From contig CAMCHB010000002.1 in assembly GCA_945874585.1 (NCBI GenBank), positions 1 to 33,519 on the forward strand: a stretch of DNA of 33,519 nt. The letters run 5' to 3'. Positions 2,652 through 33,519 of this stretch are shown here, one piece after another. Each line of letters begins with the position of its first letter. Position 1 is the stretch's first letter. Source of the DNA: an uncultured Clostridium sp. Lineage in GTDB: Bacteria; Bacillota; Clostridia; TANB77; CAG-508. Below the pieces are notes generated by a model, which was given only the letters and a program-made list of their open reading frames with translations, had not been told where the DNA came from and did not search any database. The position numbers and the translations under genes are program-made.

Positions 2652-4076
2652 ATGAAGCAGAATAAAAAAATAATAGGAACAATGGGAATCACCATAGGAG
2701 CAGTTGCTATGTTGCTTTCTCATGTTTATGCAGCCAGTGGTACAGTAGCATCAGAAACGGTTCGTATGAGAGAAAAGCCAACCACGCAATCTGCTATTGT
2801 GATAAATTTAGATAAAGATGACAAAGTAGATGTGATAGAACAACAAGGGGATTGGTATAAGATAAAATACGATGGAAAACAAGGATATGTTAGTAAAGAT
2901 TTGATAAAAGTAGATGGCAAAGTAGAAAAAATCACATCTTCTAATACGACCAATACGACAACATCCAGCGAAAACAAGACCAGTGAAGAAGAAAGTTCAA
3001 GCCAGAATACAGTGACAGAAGAGGAAAATAACAATTCTTCTGATGAAACCGAAAATAAACAAGAAGTTGCATCCCAAACAGATACTTCTATGGAAGTGGG
3101 ACAGGCCTATCCGGTAGCACAAGAGACAAAATTGTATGGTTTACCAGTTCTTTCATCTTCTGATACCATGACTGTTCCAAAAGGAGAAAAGGTAACTGTG
3201 TTGGATTGCTTAAATCGATGGGTTTATGTAGAAACAGCAGAAGGAAATGGATGGATGTTATCCAATATGACAACAAGTCAAGATCAAAGTAGTACTCCTA
3301 AAGAGGAAGACCACCAAATTGACGAAACCAAACAGGACGATAAAAACCAAGAAAATACCAATACAGTTTCTAAAACTGAAACAGAATCAAAAGACAAAAC
3401 AACAACCAAAGTAGGATATGTGAATACCGATAGTGCCTATATTAGACGCCAACCAGATACAAGTTCAGAAGCCATTGATGCCCTACAATTAAATGATAAA
3501 GTAACCATCTTAGGAGAAGAAAATAATTGGTATCAAGTGCAATATGGGGACTCAAAAGTAAAAGGTTATATTGCCAAAAAATTGATTTCAAGTGAAAAAA
3601 CAAAGACAACCTCTAGAAGTATGACAGCTCCAAGAGGAGAAACTGTGGAAATCGAAACGCAAAATGAAGCAAAAACGGCAGAAAAAACAGAACAAAACAA
3701 TACAGCCAATGGAGATGCAGTTGTTGCTTATGCCAAAACATTTTTACATGCCAAATATGTGTCTGGTGGGAATGGACCAACTGCTTTTGATTGCTCTGGT
3801 TTTACCCAATATGTGTATCAAAAATTTGGCTATTCTTTAAATAGAACAGCAGCTGGACAAGCAAGCAATGGAACAAAGGTGAACAAAGATGCTATGCAAA
3901 AAGGAGATTTACTTCTTTTCTATGATGAAGCTAGAAGTAAAATTGGTCATGTTGGAATTTATATTGGAAATCAGCAATTTATCCATGCAGCCAATGCTAG
4001 TAGAGGTGTTGTAACAGATTCCATTCACAATTCTTACTACGCACCAAGATTGGTAGATATTCGAAGAATTTTATAA
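2652..4076 (+). CDS. Secreted cell-wall hydrolase: three SH3b-like domains + C-terminal NlpC/P60 endopeptidase
   Basis: ATG 2652 is preceded by a GAGAGGTG SD; the ORF-track start 2583 has none. Signal peptide MKQNKKIIGTMGITIGAVAMLLSHVYA. SH3b-like modules (GDWYKIKYDGKQGYV; NRWVYVETAEGNGWM; NNWYQVQYGDSKVKGYI) are separated by S/T/N/E-rich linkers. NlpC/P60 catalytic Cys (FDCSGFTQYVY) and His (GHVGIYIG). Confidence 0.88.
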   Translation: MKQNKKIIGTMGITIGAVAMLLSHVYAASGTVASETVRMREKPTTQSAIVINLDKDDKVDVIEQQGDWYKIKYDGKQGYVSKDLIKVDGKVEKITSSNTTNTTTSSENKTSEEESSSQNTVTEEENNNSSDETENKQEVASQTDTSMEVGQAYPVAQETKLYGLPVLSSSDTMTVPKGEKVTVLDCLNRWVYVETAEGNGWMLSNMTTSQDQSSTPKEEDHQIDETKQDDKNQENTNTVSKTETESKDKTTTKVGYVNTDSAYIRRQPDTSSEAIDALQLNDKVTILGEENNWYQVQYGDSKVKGYIAKKLISSEKTKTTSRSMTAPRGETVEIETQNEAKTAEKTEQNNTANGDAVVAYAKTFLHAKYVSGGNGPTAFDCSGFTQYVYQKFGYSLNRTAAGQASNGTKVNKDAMQKGDLLLFYDEARSKIGHVGIYIGNQQFIHAANASRGVVTDSIHNSYYAPRLVDIRRIL

Positions 4077-4106
4077 AAATAACGGGGGCAAAAAGGATGG
4101 ACAGGT

Positions 4107-6512
4107 ATGAAACGTGCTATTTTAGTTGCCTCAATGGGAACGATTATAGGAATCGTAGAAAAACTATACTGGAACATCAGTATAGTTTTTTTGATAGCCA
4201 TAGGTTATGCTTTATTAGCCATATGGTTTCATTTCAAACCCAAACAAAAACGTTATTGGAAAGTATTAGGCCAAAAGCAATGCATTGTTTTCTGCTTTTT
4301 TGCTATCTTGGCAAATTTTTATACGGCCATTTGGGAAAATCAGTATCAGAAAGTGTATCAAGCACCAGAAAATTGGAAAGTATGTGGAATTGTATGGAAA
4401 GAGATGCAGGAAAAGCCTTATAGCAAGCAAACAATTGTTAAAATAACAACAAAGCCATACCAAAACAAGAAGATAATTGTAAAGTGTCCGAAAAATGTAC
4501 AAGATTTACCTTATGGAAGTTTGGTACAATTAGAAGGAAACTATGAGAAACCAAACCCACAAAAGAATGACAAGGGATTTGATCAGCAAAAATATCAGAA
4601 AACAAAAGGAGTTTTTGGCACATTGGTAGTTAAGAAAACAACTATTTTGCAAGAGCAAAAAATAGATGGAATACACCAAACAGCTTATTTTCTTAACCAA
4701 TGGATCAAAAATAAATGCCATCAACTTTTGCCGAAAAGAGAGGCTAGTTTATTCATTGGCCTATTATTAGGTGATACAGAGGAAATTGAGGAGGATATAG
4801 CACAGGATTTTGTGCAAAGCAGTTTGGCACATATGTTGGCCGTTTCTGGTACCCATATTTCTTATCTTGTGATCGGAATCTCTTTTTTCTTTTCTTATTT
4901 TGGAAAAAGAAAAGCTCGTATGTTCACGGTAATAGGGCTTGTTTTTTTCATGTATATGACCAATTTTGCAGCTTCTGTGGTTCGCGCTTGCCTTATGGGA
5001 ATAGCGACTTTAGGGGGTCAAATTTTATATCGTAAATCCGATATATACACCAATATGGGATTATCCTGTTTCTTAATTTTATTGGTGAATCCATATCAAA
5101 TTTTAGACATTGGTTTGCAGCTTTCCTATGCTGGAACATTGGGAATTGTTTTGGTATATTCATTGTGTCAGCCATGGATTCGAAAAAGTCCAAAAGGAAT
5201 CAGACCAGTGTGCAATATTCTGGCGATAACAGGATCAGCACAAATAGCTGTATTTCCTTTAATTGCTTACTATTTTCAAAATATTTCTTTTACGTTTTTT
5301 CTATCCAATTTATTGGCAACTCCCATTTTGGCAATTTTAATGCTAGGTGGAATGGGATTTGTTTTTCTTATTTTTCTTGCCCCAACAGTAGGTGCTTGGT
5401 TTTCTCCTGTGCTTGCATTTCTCCTTCGACTTTTAATGAAAATTTCCCATCAAGTGGCACAAATGCCGTTTTCATATGTACTGATTCCAGCGCCAGCTTG
5501 GGGGGGATTGTTGCTTTATTATCTTGTCCTTTTCTTATTTTTACAAAGGCAGCATATCAAACAAACACAAGGGGAATGGAGGTTTTTAACTAGTCTTCAA
5601 AAAAAGAAAATCATTTGGATAAAAAAGATAGAACAAATGAAAGTAAAAATTGGAATTGGGTTGATTTGTCTTATCCTAACCATCATTTTAGGGAGACAGT
5701 GCTTTTTCCTAGTTAACAAGAAATTGGATATTTTTTTTGTAGATGTAGGACAGGGAGATGCCTGCTTGATTCGAACACCCCATCAAAAGAATATTTTGAT
5801 AGACGGAGGAGGCAGTGAAAATTACGATGTTGGAAAAAATATTGTATTACCATATTTGCTCAAACATGGAATTACTAAAATTGATGTGCTATTCATTTCT
5901 CATTTTGATACAGACCACTGTGGTGGTTTGTGGTATGTGCTACAAAATCTGAAAGTGGACTATATTGTTCTAGGAAAACAAATGGAAATCAATGAAAATT
6001 ATGTCGATTTTCAGAAAATTGTCAAACAAAAAAAGATAAAAGTTAAAATGGTAACAGCAGGACAGCAAATCAAATTGGAAAATGACTTAACCTGTCATGT
6101 TTTATGGCCTGAAACTAAAAAAGAAATAGCAGAAAATACAATCAATAATCAATCATTGGTATTTCAATTGGTTTATCGAAAATTTACAATGTTACTAACA
6201 GGTGATATCGAAAAAATAGCAGAAGAAAAACTAATACAAAAATATGGAAAAACAAATGCCCTACAGTCAAATCTCTTAAAAATACCCCATCATGGTTCTA
6301 AAACATCTAGTACAGATGAATTTTTGCAATGTGTTAAGCCTCAGGTGGCACTCATAGGAGTTGGTAAAAATCACTTTGGACACCCATCAGAAGAGGTATT
6401 AAATCGATTACAAGAACATCAAATTTTGTATTATCGAACCGATCAACAAGGAGAAATTCATGTAGCCGTTTTGCCAAACAGTCAAATGGAAATACAAACT
6501 TTTTTGCCATAA
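4107..6512 (+). CDS. comEC: DNA internalization competence protein ComEC/Rec2
   Basis: 801-aa polytopic membrane protein. Competence domain (LAHMLAVSGTHISYL) and C-terminal metallo-beta-lactamase fold (DIFFVDVGQGDACLI..LIDGGG..ISHFDTDHCGG..PHHGS). Confidence 0.9.
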   Translation: MKRAILVASMGTIIGIVEKLYWNISIVFLIAIGYALLAIWFHFKPKQKRYWKVLGQKQCIVFCFFAILANFYTAIWENQYQKVYQAPENWKVCGIVWKEMQEKPYSKQTIVKITTKPYQNKKIIVKCPKNVQDLPYGSLVQLEGNYEKPNPQKNDKGFDQQKYQKTKGVFGTLVVKKTTILQEQKIDGIHQTAYFLNQWIKNKCHQLLPKREASLFIGLLLGDTEEIEEDIAQDFVQSSLAHMLAVSGTHISYLVIGISFFFSYFGKRKARMFTVIGLVFFMYMTNFAASVVRACLMGIATLGGQILYRKSDIYTNMGLSCFLILLVNPYQILDIGLQLSYAGTLGIVLVYSLCQPWIRKSPKGIRPVCNILAITGSAQIAVFPLIAYYFQNISFTFFLSNLLATPILAILMLGGMGFVFLIFLAPTVGAWFSPVLAFLLRLLMKISHQVAQMPFSYVLIPAPAWGGLLLYYLVLFLFLQRQHIKQTQGEWRFLTSLQKKKIIWIKKIEQMKVKIGIGLICLILTIILGRQCFFLVNKKLDIFFVDVGQGDACLIRTPHQKNILIDGGGSENYDVGKNIVLPYLLKHGITKIDVLFISHFDTDHCGGLWYVLQNLKVDYIVLGKQMEINENYVDFQKIVKQKKIKVKMVTAGQQIKLENDLTCHVLWPETKKEIAENTINNQSLVFQLVYRKFTMLLTGDIEKIAEEKLIQKYGKTNALQSNLLKIPHHGSKTSSTDEFLQCVKPQVALIGVGKNHFGHPSEEVLNRLQEHQILYYRTDQQGEIHVAVLPNSQMEIQTFLP

Positions 6513-30786: not shown

Positions 30787-32784
30787 ATGCCAATCAATAA
30801 GAAAATTCTAGAAAAAATCACTTCAAAAACAAAAATTTATTTGGTGATTATTTTTATCTTGCTAATACTAATATGCTTATATGATAAAATTTGGATTCTG
30901 CCAGCTAGTTTGTTTTACATCTTGCTTGTTGCCTATACATTTTGGACCAATGGAAAGAAAAAACACGAATTTTTTAAGCATTTACAAGAAATCACATTAG
31001 ATGTGGATTCAGCTGCTAAAAATACACTCATCAATTCACCATTTCCATTAGTTGTGCTTGAAACGGATGGAAACATCATATGGAAAAATCAAAAATTTGT
31101 TAAAGAATTCATCAATGTGGATATTCACACTTGTTTGGATGAAATTATCAAAGAAGTCAGACAAGATATTATTCATCATCACGAAAATAAGGCAATTGAA
31201 AAAGAAATCGAAATTGGTGAAAAAAATTATAAAATAATTGGAGAATATGTTAAGAGTAAAAAAGATCATGACCAACAAAAATATGTTATGAATTTGTATT
31301 TTTTAGATAACACAAAAAACATTGAAATTCAGCAAAAATACAAAGATTCTAGAACCTGTATTGGAATCATTATGATTGATAATTATGAAGAAGTGATGCA
31401 ACGTATTTCAACTGAAGCAACACCTCAGGTAATTGCAACTGTGGAACAAGAAATTTATAATTGGGTTAATCCAACGGGTGGATTGGTCATCAAAAAAGAT
31501 CGTGATACTTTTATCTATGTTTTTGAAAAGAAGTATTTAAAAGGATTAAAACAGGAAAAATTTCATATTTTAGATACGATTAAACAAATCAATATGGAAG
31601 GTAAAATGCCAATTACACTAAGTATTGCGATAACAGATGAAGGAGAAACCTATGATGATAAATATCAATCTGCTTTATCTGCTATTGATATTGCTTTAGG
31701 AAGAGGTGGTGACCAAGCAGTTGTGCGTGAAGATGGGGCTTATCATTTTTTCGGAGGACGAGCACAAGAGGTCGAAAAGAGAACCAAGGTAAAAGCAAGA
31801 ATGATTGCTCATGCATTAGAAGAACTTATGTTAGAATCAAAAGACGTGATGATTATGGGACATATGAATGGTGATATTGATTCCATGGGGTCTAGTTTGG
31901 GCTTGTATCGTTTGGCAAAAAGCTTGGGAAAAGACGTGCACATTGTTAGCCAAACAGCAGATATTACGCTTTCTAATTTTATTGATATGTTAAAAGAGAG
32001 TGAAGAATACAGGGAAGCTATTATTGATAAAAATGAGGCGATTGGACGTATCAGTCCAGAGACTTTGTTGATTATTGTGGATACACATCGCAAAAATTAT
32101 GTGGAAGTTCCAAGTTTGCTAAAAGAAACAGAAAAAATTGTGATTATCGATCATCATCGTAAAAGTACAGAATTTATCGAGTCACCAATTTTAATGTTTC
32201 ATGAAGTATATGCTTCTTCAACAGCTGAATTGGTAATTGAAATTTTACAATATGCTAAACAAAATGTACAATTGACGGATCAAGAAATTGAAGCACTATA
32301 TGGTGGTATTATGGTGGATACCAAAGACTTTACTTTTAAAACAGGTGTGAGAACATTTGAAGCAGCAGCATATCTTAGAAAATTAGGCGTTGATATCATC
32401 AAAGTAAAGAAATGGTTTCAAGTGGATTTGGCCAATTACAATATCATTTCTGATATTGTCAAGAAGGCAGAAATTATCAATGATACAATTGCCATTGCAG
32501 TGTATGATAAAGTCGATAAGAATGCAGGTATTATTTGTGCAAAAACAGCCGATGAACTGATTACCATTAGTGATATTACAGCTTCTTTTGTGATTGGAAA
32601 TGTAGGAGATAAAATTTGCATCAGTGGCCGTTCCATTGGAGATATCAATGTACAAGTCGTGCTAGAGAAATTAGGCGGAGGCGGTCATATTACGGTAGCA
32701 GGAGCTCAACTAGATGAACTAACACTAGATGAAGCAAAACAATTGGTAATTGACAAAGTAAATGAATATTTAAAAGAGGATTAA
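30787..32784 (+). CDS. gdpP: Cyclic-di-AMP phosphodiesterase GdpP (2 TM + PAS-like + degenerate GGDEF + DHH/DHHA1)
   Basis: Two N-terminal TM helices, a degenerate GGDEF region (..LGRGGDQAVV), DHH motif (MGHMNGDIDSMGS..DTHR..IDHH) and DHHA1 GGGGH. The start is ambiguous: ATG 30787 (GGGGAAGG upstream) or ATG 30772, where the SD is only 2 nt away. Confidence 0.9.
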   Translation: MPINKKILEKITSKTKIYLVIIFILLILICLYDKIWILPASLFYILLVAYTFWTNGKKKHEFFKHLQEITLDVDSAAKNTLINSPFPLVVLETDGNIIWKNQKFVKEFINVDIHTCLDEIIKEVRQDIIHHHENKAIEKEIEIGEKNYKIIGEYVKSKKDHDQQKYVMNLYFLDNTKNIEIQQKYKDSRTCIGIIMIDNYEEVMQRISTEATPQVIATVEQEIYNWVNPTGGLVIKKDRDTFIYVFEKKYLKGLKQEKFHILDTIKQINMEGKMPITLSIAITDEGETYDDKYQSALSAIDIALGRGGDQAVVREDGAYHFFGGRAQEVEKRTKVKARMIAHALEELMLESKDVMIMGHMNGDIDSMGSSLGLYRLAKSLGKDVHIVSQTADITLSNFIDMLKESEEYREAIIDKNEAIGRISPETLLIIVDTHRKNYVEVPSLLKETEKIVIIDHHRKSTEFIESPILMFHEVYASSTAELVIEILQYAKQNVQLTDQEIEALYGGIMVDTKDFTFKTGVRTFEAAAYLRKLGVDIIKVKKWFQVDLANYNIISDIVKKAEIINDTIAIAVYDKVDKNAGIICAKTADELITISDITASFVIGNVGDKICISGRSIGDINVQVVLEKLGGGGHITVAGAQLDELTLDEAKQLVIDKVNEYLKED

Positions 32785-32829
32785 AGAAAAAGACATGTAG
32801 TTTTAGACTAAGGGCTGTAAAAAATGTTA

Positions 32830-32858
32830 TTGACAACGAGAGAACTGCGTAGTAAAAT
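32830..32858 (+). promoter_or_regulatory. Near-consensus sigma-A promoter of a predicted small RNA
   Basis: TTGACA (32830-32835), exactly 17 nt, TAAAAT (32853-32858), 46 nt after the gdpP stop. No SD-spaced ORF follows. Confidence 0.65.
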
Positions 32859-32864
32859 AAAAAT

Positions 32865-32955
32865 AGGAAATGGGAGCCACAGAAATGTGTGTTACCTTAA
32901 ATGAATAAATAACACCACATAGCTTGGCCAAGCATAATGTGGTGTGTTTCTTTTA
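32865..32955 (+). ncRNA. Predicted ~90-nt small RNA, 3'-antisense to the convergent peptide mRNA (candidate type I antitoxin)
   Basis: Runs from the predicted TSS (~7 nt after the -10) to the U-tract after hairpin 32912-32945. The only internal ATG has an SD-like AGGA immediately adjacent, which is non-functional spacing. Boundaries are predictions, not measurements. Confidence 0.45.
32912..32945. terminator. Bidirectional intrinsic terminator shared by the small RNA (+) and the peptide mRNA (-)
   Basis: ACACCACAT / ATGTGGTGT 9-bp stem plus an inner GCTT/AAGC stem. GTTTCTTTT follows on the plus strand and TTATTTATTCATTT follows on the minus strand. Confidence 0.75.
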
Positions 32956-33063
32956 TTGACTTAAAATAATAACCAAAGTTATAATTAAGGCAATTGCTAT
33001 GATAGTAATACCAATTATTCCGAAAAATAATAGGTATAACAATTGAATGAATAATAATTCCAT
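32953..33063 (-). CDS. 36-aa all-hydrophobic membrane peptide (candidate type I toxin); below ORF-track length cutoff
   Basis: Hand translation gives ATG 33063-33061 ... TAA 32955-32953: MELLFIQLLYLLFFGIIGITIIAIALIITLVIILSQ. SD GGAGG (33075-33071) with a 7-nt spacer. The ORF has its own promoter and terminator. Confidence 0.6.
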   Translation of the reverse strand: MELLFIQLLYLLFFGIIGITIIAIALIITLVIILSQ

Positions 33064-33148
33064 AGCACCACCTCCATTCTCACAGTTAGAACTGTGTATG
33101 TAAAGTGGTAACACGCACATCTGCTTATTCTCATTTCCTATGTTTCAT

Positions 33149-33177
33149 ACTATATAACATAATTTGGAAAAAAGCAA
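33149..33177 (-). promoter_or_regulatory. Sigma-A-type promoter of the peptide mRNA
   Basis: Minus strand reads TTGCTT (33177-33172), 17-nt spacer, TATAGT (33154-33149). This predicts a 5' UTR of about 80 nt. Confidence 0.5.
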
Positions 33178-33273
33178 GAAAAACCAAACAAGTTTTTGAT
33201 ATTTTTTAGTGATTGATAAGAAAACTGGCGATTATTGCAAGAAAAATACATTGTCATAAGGAGAGTATAATAC

Positions 33274-33302
33274 TTGACAAACAATGACAAAACCTGTAAA
33301 AT
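33274..33302 (+). promoter_or_regulatory. Near-consensus promoter of the radical-SAM gene, overlapped by TGACAA repeats
   Basis: TTGACA (33274-33279), 17-nt spacer, TAAAAT (33297-33302). TGACAAAC (33275-33282) and TGACAAAAC (33285-33293) are direct repeats 10 nt apart, and TTGTCA (33251-33256) is an inverted copy. Confidence 0.65.
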
Positions 33303-33356
33303 GTAAATATAATGTTTAAAAAATTTTTTTCTTAAATAATTTTAGGAGGAATCTTT

Positions 33357-33519
33357 ATGAAAGAGCGTGAACTTAGATTACTATTAACTCAAAAATGTAA
33401 CTTTAAATGTGGCTTTTGCCATAAGGAAGGAGTAATTGAAACTAAAAAAGAAATACTAAATGCATCAGATTATGTTTGGGTATATGATCTTCTAAAAAAA
33501 TGGTATGGATGGAACACAA
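33357..33519 (+). CDS. Radical SAM enzyme, MoaA-like N-terminus (3'-truncated by window edge)
   Basis: AGGAGG SD 7 nt before ATG 33357. MKERELRLLLTQKCNFKCGFCHKEG carries the CxxxCxxC 4Fe-4S/SAM motif in a MoaA-like context (compare LRISVTDRCNxRCxYC). Only 54 codons are visible. Confidence 0.7.
   Translation, partial: MKERELRLLLTQKCNFKCGFCHKEGVIETKKEILNASDYVWVYDLLKKWYGWNT

Follow-up and report, generated by a model that had tools for sequence, protein, structure and literature searches.

A probable type I toxin-antitoxin-like cassette of a new family beside gdpP in an uncultured gut Clostridium

The gdpP locus and the anatomy of the cassette

The DNA analyzed here, referred to as the window, is a stretch of 33,519 nucleotides (nt) from an uncultured Clostridium sp. 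(contig CAMCHB010000002.1 of assembly GCA_945874585.1). Close to its end, in the intergenic region between gdpP and a gene for a radical S-adenosylmethionine (radical-SAM) protein, lies a cassette (about 32830–33177) in which a minus-strand gene for a small hydrophobic peptide faces a plus-strand promoter, from which a small antisense RNA is predicted to run into the 3′ end of the peptide mRNA (Table 1). A first-pass annotation, made from the letters of the window, had proposed that this arrangement could be a type I toxin-antitoxin-like module of a new family or simply an antisense-regulated small membrane protein. The comparative analysis described below argues that it is probably a chromosomal type I toxin-antitoxin-like cassette which belongs to a new family.

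The peptide gene consists of an open reading frame (ORF) of 36 amino acids (aa) which encodes MELLFIQLLYLLFFGIIGITIIAIALIITLVIILSQ. An ORF listing gives a form of 55 aa which is extended at the N-terminus and shares its stop codon with the 36-aa ORF. The longer form was rejected as the true product, as its start lacks a usable Shine-Dalgarno (SD) sequence; its 19 extra residues are conserved because they translate the structured 5′ untranslated region (UTR) of the mRNA. The elements described on first inspection are all present, namely the 36-aa ORF preceded by GGAGG at a spacing of 7 nt, its own promoter with a 5′ UTR now put at about 78 nt (predicted start near 33141), the convergent plus-strand promoter, and a hairpin followed by U-tracts on both strands, with GUUUCUUUUAUU on the plus strand and UAUUUAUUCAUUU on the minus strand. 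A simple terminator scan did not flag this hairpin because its stem holds an internal loop.

Table 1. Features of the cassette and its surroundings in the window
Feature	Position	Strand	Details
Promoter of the antisense small RNA	32830–32858	+	TTGACA (32830–32835), 17 nt, TAAAAT (32853–32858); 11/12 consensus matches
Predicted antisense small RNA, candidate antitoxin	32865–32957	+	About 91 nt; 5′ hairpin, linker, terminator hairpin with U-tract
5′ block of the small RNA, near copy (not complement) of the mRNA leader	32863–32896	+	One arm of the terminal inverted repeat
Shared bidirectional terminator hairpin, site of the RNA overlap	32912–32945	both	Folds and inverted repeat
Gene of the 36-aa hydrophobic peptide, candidate toxin, including stop codon	32953–33063	−	ORF and homologues P0007–P0018
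SD sequence GGAGG	33071–33075	−	7 nt ahead of ATG
Anti-SD ACCACUUU (33109–33102) and internal hairpin (33096–33081)	33081–33109	−	Minimum free energy and centroid folds
Near-invariant 26-nt leader ATAGGAAATGAGAATAAGCAGATGTG, 5′ end of the mRNA	33116–33141	−	Second arm of the inverted repeat
Promoter of the peptide mRNA	33149–33177	−	TTGCTT (33177–33172), 17 nt, TATAGT (33154–33149)
105-nt segment with a second copy just upstream of rplI, beyond the window	33152–33256		91–92% identity; the copies flank the radical-SAM and NUDIX island

Both predicted transcripts are strongly structured. The plus-strand RNA, modeled at 98 nt, folds with −28.9 kcal/mol (z = −3.4) and the peptide mRNA, modeled at 251 nt, with −65.9 kcal/mol (z = −4.4; 0 of 200 shuffles are as good). 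The small RNA had been expected to measure some 90 nt and to be complementary to the 3′ end of the mRNA over its last 50 nt or so; its length is now put at about 91 nt (32865 to about 32955), and the predicted complementarity extends to about 55 nt (55–59 nt of perfect pairing), and cofolding of the two RNAs, which had been suggested as a check, gives a free energy change (ddG) of −57.8 kcal/mol. The overlap reaches no further into the ORF than the stop codon (32953–32955). Taken alone, this anatomy is weak evidence: the DNA is AT-rich, promoter-like matches are in excess and hydrophobic ORFs arise easily in such sequence. The promoter calls gain their weight because both promoters are conserved in more than 80 homologous cassettes.

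A family of cassettes in gut Clostridia

A degenerate 22-nt pattern derived from the mRNA leader was used to seed a scan of a collection holding one representative genome per species. The pattern was found at no fewer than 120 loci, all of them in metagenome-assembled genomes of uncultured gut Clostridia; the hosts of the listed loci are human, mouse, rabbit, goat and deer, and Clostridium sp. CAG:245 is represented by three scaffolds and one Candidatus Scatovivens genome by two contigs. Protein searches retrieved 18 related small ORFs. Exact look-up of the 36-aa peptide gave no match because gene callers use the upstream start of the 55-aa form. From the loci, 102 distinct full-length cassettes were compared, 84 of the family being used for the counts of the antisense promoter. 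In cassettes found via the peptide alone, and thus without selection for the leader, 25–26 of the 26 leader nucleotides are identical.

The cassettes occur in at least four unrelated genomic contexts (between gdpP and the radical-SAM gene, between spo0A and spoIIID, between spo0A and a GNAT acetyltransferase gene, and between hsp33 and a DHH-family gene). When they are aligned across contexts, the homology is bounded precisely by the two promoters; between the window and the genome loci the cassette alone is held in common, with about 70% identity over 32850–33219. The pair is thus self-contained. The multiple copies expected of type I systems were likewise found: several genomes carry two or three cassettes, and tandem pairs are present at two loci (L028 and L001).

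A locus at L011:2920–3320 and L093 (Clostridium sp. CAG:245 scf139) occupy the same site and have near-identical outer promoter flanks, while their interiors belong to different subtypes in which peptide, 5′ hairpin of the small RNA and terminator stem all differ. This suggests either replacement of the interior or a much faster divergence of the interior.

Conservation of the peptide gene

In the window peptide, 92% of the 36 residues belong to a broad hydrophobic-or-small set (AILMFVWCGTSY) and a single transmembrane (TM) helix is predicted. An intact hydrophobic ORF of 33–42 aa with a strong SD sequence is found in about 89 of the 102 cassettes, and in nearly all of them the SD, either GGAGG or GGTGG, lies at the same position. 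The peptides fall into at least five subfamilies, all of 33–47 aa and with one TM helix, whose N-terminus is short and acidic (M-I/V-E) and whose C-terminus is short and either polar or charged (examples are MIEAVLLEIIYLLLFGLVVETIIVFALIILVIILSK, MVEIQTLIATIYILYYSLIGVTIIAIALIIALAVILSKSE, MIEFLMFLIIGLMISTTINVALLAIIFIQWTNKE and MVKVILFFIISLMLSLTLNVALTAVLYKNWVDKQLHK). The window peptide and all intact relatives are free of proline, and the window peptide also contains no cysteine. Within subfamilies, the second codon position varies least, the pooled ratio of nonsynonymous to synonymous polymorphism (pN/pS) is 0.32–0.58, and length variants stay in frame. The ORF is thus under purifying selection, and the cassette in the window is no chance ORF.

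The first-pass annotation had remarked that the peptide lacks the charged C-terminal tail common in type I toxins. This is correct for the copy in the window and does not extend to the family, as the last one to four residues are polar or charged in almost every relative (SK, SKQK, SKSE, TNKE, DKQLHK or NRASNKNKKTHL). Searches with eight peptide variants against Pfam, NCBIfam and PADLOC models returned no match (noise only at E ≤ 10), in line with the suggestion that the peptides could form a new family.

Sequestration of the Shine-Dalgarno sequence in the peptide mRNA

The peptide promoter was recognized in 92 of the 102 cassettes, with a −10 hexamer of TATAGT, TATACT or TATATT, a 17-nt spacer and a weaker −35 hexamer. 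In the 5′ UTR of the window's mRNA, the anti-SD ACCACUUU pairs with GAGGUGGU across a CACAGU/ACUGUG hairpin in both the minimum free energy and the centroid fold, as had been proposed from inspection. Across the fold models, the mean unpaired probability of the SD is 0.05 (paired about 0.95).

Cassettes with a short leader form a 10-bp stem, GUUUGCCUCC/GGAGGU.AGGC, which recurs with the pairs GCCACC/GGUGGU, GCCCCC/GGGGGU and GCUUCC/GGAAGU; these represent three independent double compensatory changes, which took place despite a worsened SD consensus. Cassettes with a long leader, the class to which the window belongs, pair GCCAC/ACCAC-UUU with GGAGGUGG across an internal hairpin; each subfamily has its own sequence for this hairpin, and its pairing is always kept. 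The SD-sequestering helix is thus maintained through covariation, and the fold models indicate that translation of the peptide mRNA is held off by structure.

The predicted antisense RNA and the shared terminator

The antisense promoter is conserved, and it is the stronger of the two. In 84 cassettes it combines a −35 hexamer of TTGACA or TTGACT with a −10 hexamer of TATAAT (74 cassettes) or TAAAAT (9 cassettes), separated by a spacer mostly of 17 nt which is kept in length and free in sequence. On average, it matches the consensus at 11.36 of 12 positions, as opposed to 8.82 for the peptide promoter.

The predicted small RNA of about 90 nt begins with AGGAAAUGGAGAAACCACAAACGUGGUUUGCC and ends with ACAGAUGUGU followed by 6–8 U. 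A 5′ hairpin and the terminator fold in 67 of 77 distinct small-RNA homologues, and both stems change by compensatory substitutions between subfamilies. In the terminator stem, pairing is preserved through the variants ACACAUCU/AGAUGUGU, ACACCACAU/AUGUGGUGU, ACACUACAU/AUGUAGUGU and CUCACAUC/GAUGUGAG. From 76 small RNAs aligned plainly with MAFFT, RNAalifold recovered the 5′ hairpin alone; since the terminator loops misalign, each sequence was examined individually for its hairpins. Conservation of the terminator extends to 84 cassettes, and the U-tract is weaker in the peptide direction family-wide: the 8 nt after the stem contain a mean of 5.7 U in the direction of the small RNA vs. 3.4 in that of the peptide mRNA, where 33 of 83 cassettes have two U or fewer. 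A coding role of the small RNA was excluded, as indels of 1 nt in the hairpin loop shift every reading frame. With regard to known RNA families, Rfam returned nothing at gathering thresholds for the whole window, and a permissive scan of 32780–33260 gave chance-level hits only (E ≥ 0.99). Conservation of the antisense unit thus equals or exceeds that of the peptide gene.

Strain variation and decay of the cassette

The exact GdpP protein of the window is encoded on many metagenomic contigs, on which three arrangements of the locus are found. Four contigs (L007–L010) lead from gdpP directly to rplI over a spacer of 374 nt, in which the plus-strand promoter is kept together with an entire second-type small RNA, terminator included; of the peptide gene only the last 11 codons and the stop remain, the promoter, leader, SD and 5′ two-thirds having been deleted. 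The window and L002–L006 carry the full cassette, followed by the radical-SAM gene and a NUDIX gene ahead of rplI. Finally, L001 holds two tandem cassettes, of which one is 97–98% and the other 73–76% identical to that of the window at the DNA level. The second cassette encodes MIATQNLITIIYILFYSLIGITIITFALMIALAVIISKHK and retains the frame, the SD, a differently built SD-sequestering stem, the terminator and the antisense promoter; it looks like a functional paralogue. Contigs with an identical GdpP may thus lack the cassette of the window, which makes it a strain polymorphism.

Across the family, decay is asymmetric. The peptide gene is inactivated beside an intact small-RNA gene in at least eight loci, by truncation (L007–L010), loss of the start (L029), 5′ deletion (L050 and L099) or frameshift (L075). 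The reverse, an intact peptide ORF without a small-RNA gene, is seen in two. In one of these (L039) the SD is weakened to GGAAG and the helix contains Asp and Arg; in the other (L100; CAUWEX010000004.1, from 917) foreign DNA that starts a new gene (GGAGGTGCATTTTTGATG...) follows right after the first terminator arm, an insertion which is recent. Five further loci have lost the whole interior (L072, L124, L136, L139 and L130), and in L136 and L124 the deletion junction coincides exactly with TGTGGTTT, a short direct repeat that the leader and the far end both contain. Homologous loci in which the ORF is destroyed between preserved flanks had been named as a possible objection to the module. Such loci form a minority, and they usually retain the antisense gene, as is typical of toxin-antitoxin systems. 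The asymmetry is as expected if the peptide is harmful without the small RNA, and suggests as much.

A separate observation concerns L050 (CANQPY010000035.1), the locus with a 5′-truncated peptide gene, where the DNA some 60 nt past the promoter of the small RNA resembles a tRNA (GGGGCTTCCAACGGGAATCGAACCCGTGACC...).

Likeness of the two RNA 5′ ends

The first 34 nt or so of the two predicted RNAs are alike and not complementary. In the window, this likeness takes the form of inverted repeats of 17 + 17 nt (32859–32875 with 33129–33145, and 32880–32896 with 33107–33123), and the motif ATAGGAAATGRGA occurs twice vs. 0.22 times expected. About 80% of the cassettes have an inverted copy of the leader some 250–270 nt downstream of it. 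Leader and small-RNA 5′ end have the blocks AGGAAAUG.AGAA, CAGAUGUG and GUGGUUUGCC in common, the second of which doubles as the 3′ terminator arm in most relatives. The hexamer before CC is identical between the two arms in 59 of 87 cassettes, vs. 35.7 (maximum 43) by permutation; matched minority states include GCTACC, GTTACC, GTTGCC and TTAGCC, and the middles of the arms stay different. The two repeat arms thus evolve in concert.

Peptide transcripts that pass the terminator on its weak side may end in a complement of their own leader. When the mRNA is modeled as reading through the terminator, its 5′ leader pairs with its own 3′ end in 80 of 83 such long forms. One candidate mechanism, in which this pairing would open the SD and the small RNA would block the opening, found no support: the pairing forms in the model and the unpaired probability of the SD rises from 0.05 to 0.13, which leaves it closed in both forms. 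Since the SD is closed either way, 5′–3′ pairing would stabilize or lock the mRNA and not activate it. It is conceivable, if on the doubtful side, that the 5′ domain of the antitoxin is a maintained mimic of the toxin mRNA leader, both being complementary to the far 3′ end of the read-through transcript; the toxin mRNA would then close 5′ to 3′ in a hok-like manner and the antitoxin would compete with the leader for the 3′ element. The concerted change of the arms, the weak terminator in the toxin direction and the pairing seen in the modeled long forms speak in its favor. If true, this would unite a long-distance lock of the Gram-negative style with a 3′ antisense RNA of the Gram-positive style in a new type I architecture. 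Alternatively, the likeness of the arms may stem from gene conversion between them, or from a shared binding site for a protein or RNase. The likeness of the two 5′ ends could reveal a control step that has not been described for the type I systems compared below.

Interpretation as a type I toxin-antitoxin-like cassette

Read together, the conserved features point to the following mode of action. A moderately strong promoter would give rise to an mRNA of about 240 nt for a 36-aa membrane peptide with a single helix. With the ribosome-binding site (RBS) locked in the conserved helix, the primary transcript would be poorly translated. The stronger convergent promoter would yield an RNA of about 90 nt which ends at the same hairpin and would be perfectly complementary to the last 55 nt or so of the mRNA, or to about 90 nt if the mRNA reads through the hairpin. 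Once in a duplex, the mRNA would most likely become a target of double-strand-specific cleavage and decay, in the manner of TxpA/RatA and BsrG/SR4, and peptide synthesis would be prevented while the cassette is present. As the 3′ overlap is the only strong complementarity between the two RNAs, decay of this type is the most economical mechanism. In this scheme, we infer the transcription of both RNAs, the pairing-led decay and the membrane toxicity of the peptide. The cassette probably represents a new family within a known kind of system. As it matches no toxin family or RNA family on record, a new family is the better of the two options left by the first-pass annotation, and homologues of known type I toxins have been reported absent from most Clostridia (PMC6563280), which makes an undescribed family plausible.

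Several observations weigh against this interpretation. Promoter-like sites are frequent in the region (11 vs. 5.2 expected from shuffled sequence), which leaves promoter matches alone weak. A scan seeded with the leader favors leader conservation by construction. A pN/pS of 0.3–0.6 means that the peptide matters and says nothing on toxicity. In the window, the peptide ends in SQ, without a basic residue, owing to a lineage-specific change of the final K to Q; as it lacks the basic C-terminal residue of its relatives, this particular copy could be attenuated. No cassette copy was found in a plasmid collection or a phage collection, where many type I systems reside. Finally, duplex energies between the 5′ domain of the small RNA and the mRNA 5′ UTR plus 18 nt are no better than those of shuffles (mean z = −0.59; 3 of 83 below −2). 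Pairing of this domain with the RBS, as in Fst and SprA1AS, is not supported by these energies, and in the absence of significant RBS complementarity any translational control by the small RNA would be indirect.

In the most serious alternative, the peptide does no harm: it would be a small membrane protein, such as a modulator or an accessory subunit of some membrane complex, whose level is tuned by a cis-antisense RNA, and the anatomy would be the same without any toxin-antitoxin logic. Purifying selection and a conserved antisense RNA would suit any small membrane protein that is regulated; the cassettes are chromosomal, with core genes on either side, and the window copy is without a basic tail. 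Nevertheless, we regard this explanation as unlikely, given that no neighbor or partner gene is conserved across the four or more contexts, that several diverged paralogues and tandem pairs occur per genome, and that presence and absence differ among strains with identical flanking proteins. The very tight occlusion of the SD, the consistently stronger promoter on the antisense side, and the far commoner loss of the peptide with retention of the RNA than the reverse also speak against it. It has further to be considered that the plus-strand RNA might be no more than the gdpP 3′ UTR with its terminator, and the TTGACA/TAAAAT promoter a chance match in AT-rich DNA, given that the hairpin lies 128 nt past the gdpP stop on the same strand and that promoter-like matches reach twice the expectation. 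The same −35 and −10 hexamers, start motif, 5′ hairpin and terminator are however found in 84 cassettes regardless of the upstream gene or its orientation, and the second copy in L001 follows a NUDIX remnant and not gdpP, which renders this reading highly improbable.

Two remaining explanations take the inverted repeats and the neighboring gene as their starting points. The cassettes could be small non-autonomous mobile elements resembling miniature inverted-repeat transposable elements (MITEs), with the inverted repeats ATAGGAAATG.AGA as their ends and with incidental ORF and promoters. Terminal repeats of 17 + 17 nt at a distance fixed across the family, many copies in different intergenic sites and remnants consisting of the ends only (L072, L124 and L136) would fit such an element. 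Yet the homology does not stop at the repeats: it takes in the −10 and −35 hexamers and leaves the spacers free, which indicates long-term selection on promoters and not recent transposition; purifying selection on the ORF and covarying RNA helices are likewise at odds with a MITE, deletion between the TGTGGTTT direct repeats explains the end-only remnants, and no association with a transposase was seen for the cassettes. We therefore consider a mere mobile element improbable, although mobility and toxin-antitoxin function are not mutually exclusive. Lastly, the back-to-back arrangement of the small ORF and the radical-SAM gene in the window, which starts divergently at 33358, could be taken to mean that the peptide is the precursor of a ribosomally synthesized and post-translationally modified peptide (RiPP) with the radical-SAM protein as its maturase. 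This deserves hardly any credence: the enzyme is MoaA/viperin-like without a SPASM or peptide-maturase signature, the peptide has no Cys and no leader/core organization and forms a single TM helix, and cassettes at L001, L011–L021 and more than 100 genome loci have no radical-SAM neighbor. Moreover, the radical-SAM and NUDIX genes form a separate insertion between 105-nt repeats.

The toxin-antitoxin interpretation, in turn, bears on a class of systems that is hard to find by homology. Over 100 natural variants are on offer in the family, among them no fewer than five subfamilies of the peptide, the RNAs matched to them and numerous natural knock-outs; they come from abundant but uncultured Clostridia in the guts of humans, mice, rabbits and ruminants and make up a ready covariation data set for the RNA-based control of a membrane peptide. 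The cassette may also serve as a marker of strain-level genome plasticity, sitting as it does at a recombination hotspot that gains and loses the radical-SAM and NUDIX island, and such compact peptide/RNA pairs are possible containment or selection devices in anaerobes.

Comparison with known type I systems

In Gram-positive type I families, the antisense RNA lies on the 3′ side and overlaps the toxin mRNA in part (PMC8594479). TxpA/RatA, BsrG/SR4, BsrE/SR5 and YonT/SR6 of Bacillus subtilis resemble the cassette in that the mRNA of a single-TM peptide is overlapped at its 3′ end by a convergent RNA that has a promoter of its own. Their toxins measure 38–59 aa, the complementarity is limited to the 3′ overlap, as predicted here, and the SD of the toxin is partly sequestered by mRNA structure, just as it appears sequestered in our models. 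The likeness to txpA/RatA and bsrG/SR4 drawn by the first-pass annotation therefore stands with respect to the 3′-overlapping convergent RNA and fails with respect to the ORF overlap and sequence homology: the overlap in B. subtilis includes part of the toxin ORF, whereas here it is confined to the 3′ UTR and stop codon (about 55 nt, barring read-through), and no sequence relation is evident (no Pfam or NCBIfam match). The B. subtilis copies are furthermore located in prophages and the present ones in intergenic sites of the core genome, and only here does the 5′ end of the antisense RNA copy the mRNA leader. By analogy, the cassette appears closest in its working to TxpA/RatA and BsrG/SR4, and its mode of action may be the same.

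The par locus of the Enterococcus faecalis plasmid pAD1 (Fst/RNA II) comprises convergent promoters, a shared bidirectional terminator, an SD-sequestering 5′ stem-loop and a hydrophobic toxin of about 33 aa, and its direct repeats DRa and DRb provide a second complementarity over the toxin start site (PMC7472228). The suggested likeness to par/Fst is again partial. Convergent promoters, a shared bidirectional intrinsic terminator, an SD stem-loop and a small hydrophobic peptide recur in the cassette. The second pairing site and the toxin motif do not: the repeats are inverted, so that the two RNAs share sequence rather than pair there and no extra complementarity to the RBS arises, and the peptide has neither the PXXXG motif nor the long acidic or charged tail of Fst/Ldr, nor does it match the hidden Markov model (HMM) of Fst.

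Within the Clostridia, functional type I modules have been reported only from Clostridioides difficile, homologues of the known toxins being absent from most other members (PMC6563280). CD2517.1/RCd8, CD2907.1/RCd9 and CD0956.2/RCd10, the only ones studied by experiment in this class, likewise consist of a toxin and an antitoxin gene which converge and overlap, the toxins being small membrane proteins (PMC6563280). Going by their description, their toxins are set apart by a length of 50–53 aa and a lysine-rich tail, compared with 33–42 aa and one to four polar terminal residues here. The C. difficile modules are situated in prophages or beside CRISPR arrays; none of the present cassettes was found in the phage and plasmid collections.

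In hok/sok and aapA1/IsoA1, closure between the 5′ and 3′ ends keeps the full-length mRNA inert, comparable to the pairing in 80 of the 83 modeled long forms. In these systems the 5′ region is the target of the antisense RNA; in the present cassette the RNA would instead act on the 3′ partner of that closure. In contrast to hok, read-through is a prediction here, the SD is sequestered in both forms, and there is no mok-like coupled frame of conserved length. A candidate for such a frame, starting from an AUG inside the leader (AGGAAAUGAGA...), was rejected, as its end point and frame shift with the loop length; the same AUG context is found in the small RNA, and a GGA lies only 1–2 nt before the AUG. 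SprA1AS, finally, overlaps the 3′ end of the SprA1 mRNA and acts in trans via its 5′ domain on the RBS, to which the present RNA shows no significant complementarity.

The neighboring radical-SAM and NUDIX island

An island of two genes lies between the cassette and rplI (window 33257–33519 and beyond; L002:3402–4764). The first encodes a MoaA/viperin-like radical-SAM protein of 309 aa (PADLOC pVip, 3.4e-18; NCBIfam MoaA, 1e-37, below the cut-off) and the second a NUDIX hydrolase of 143 aa (PADLOC PDC-S07, 6e-8). The island is flanked by the 105-nt direct repeats (repeats at window 33152–33256 and L002:3241–3343), is absent from strains with an identical GdpP, and may be a nucleotide-modifying defense island.

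Traces of the NUDIX gene are also found on the other side of the cassette. Directly after the gdpP stop, 18 or more nucleotides (AAAAGACATGTAGTTTTA..., window 32788–32830) match the 3′ end of the NUDIX gene and its downstream flank, and in L001 (reverse complement of 3700–5420, about 527–760) a longer remnant of the NUDIX 3′ end is likewise joined to the second cassette. From these remnants it follows that the antisense-promoter side was once linked to NUDIX, and recombination among repeated units of cassette and island seems to have produced the locus. Contigs with an identical GdpP differ in one further respect, as RpoC is called with 1170 aa in one (L007:1591–5103) and with 1195 aa in another (L008:1591–5178), which is probably a difference of start, frameshift or assembly.

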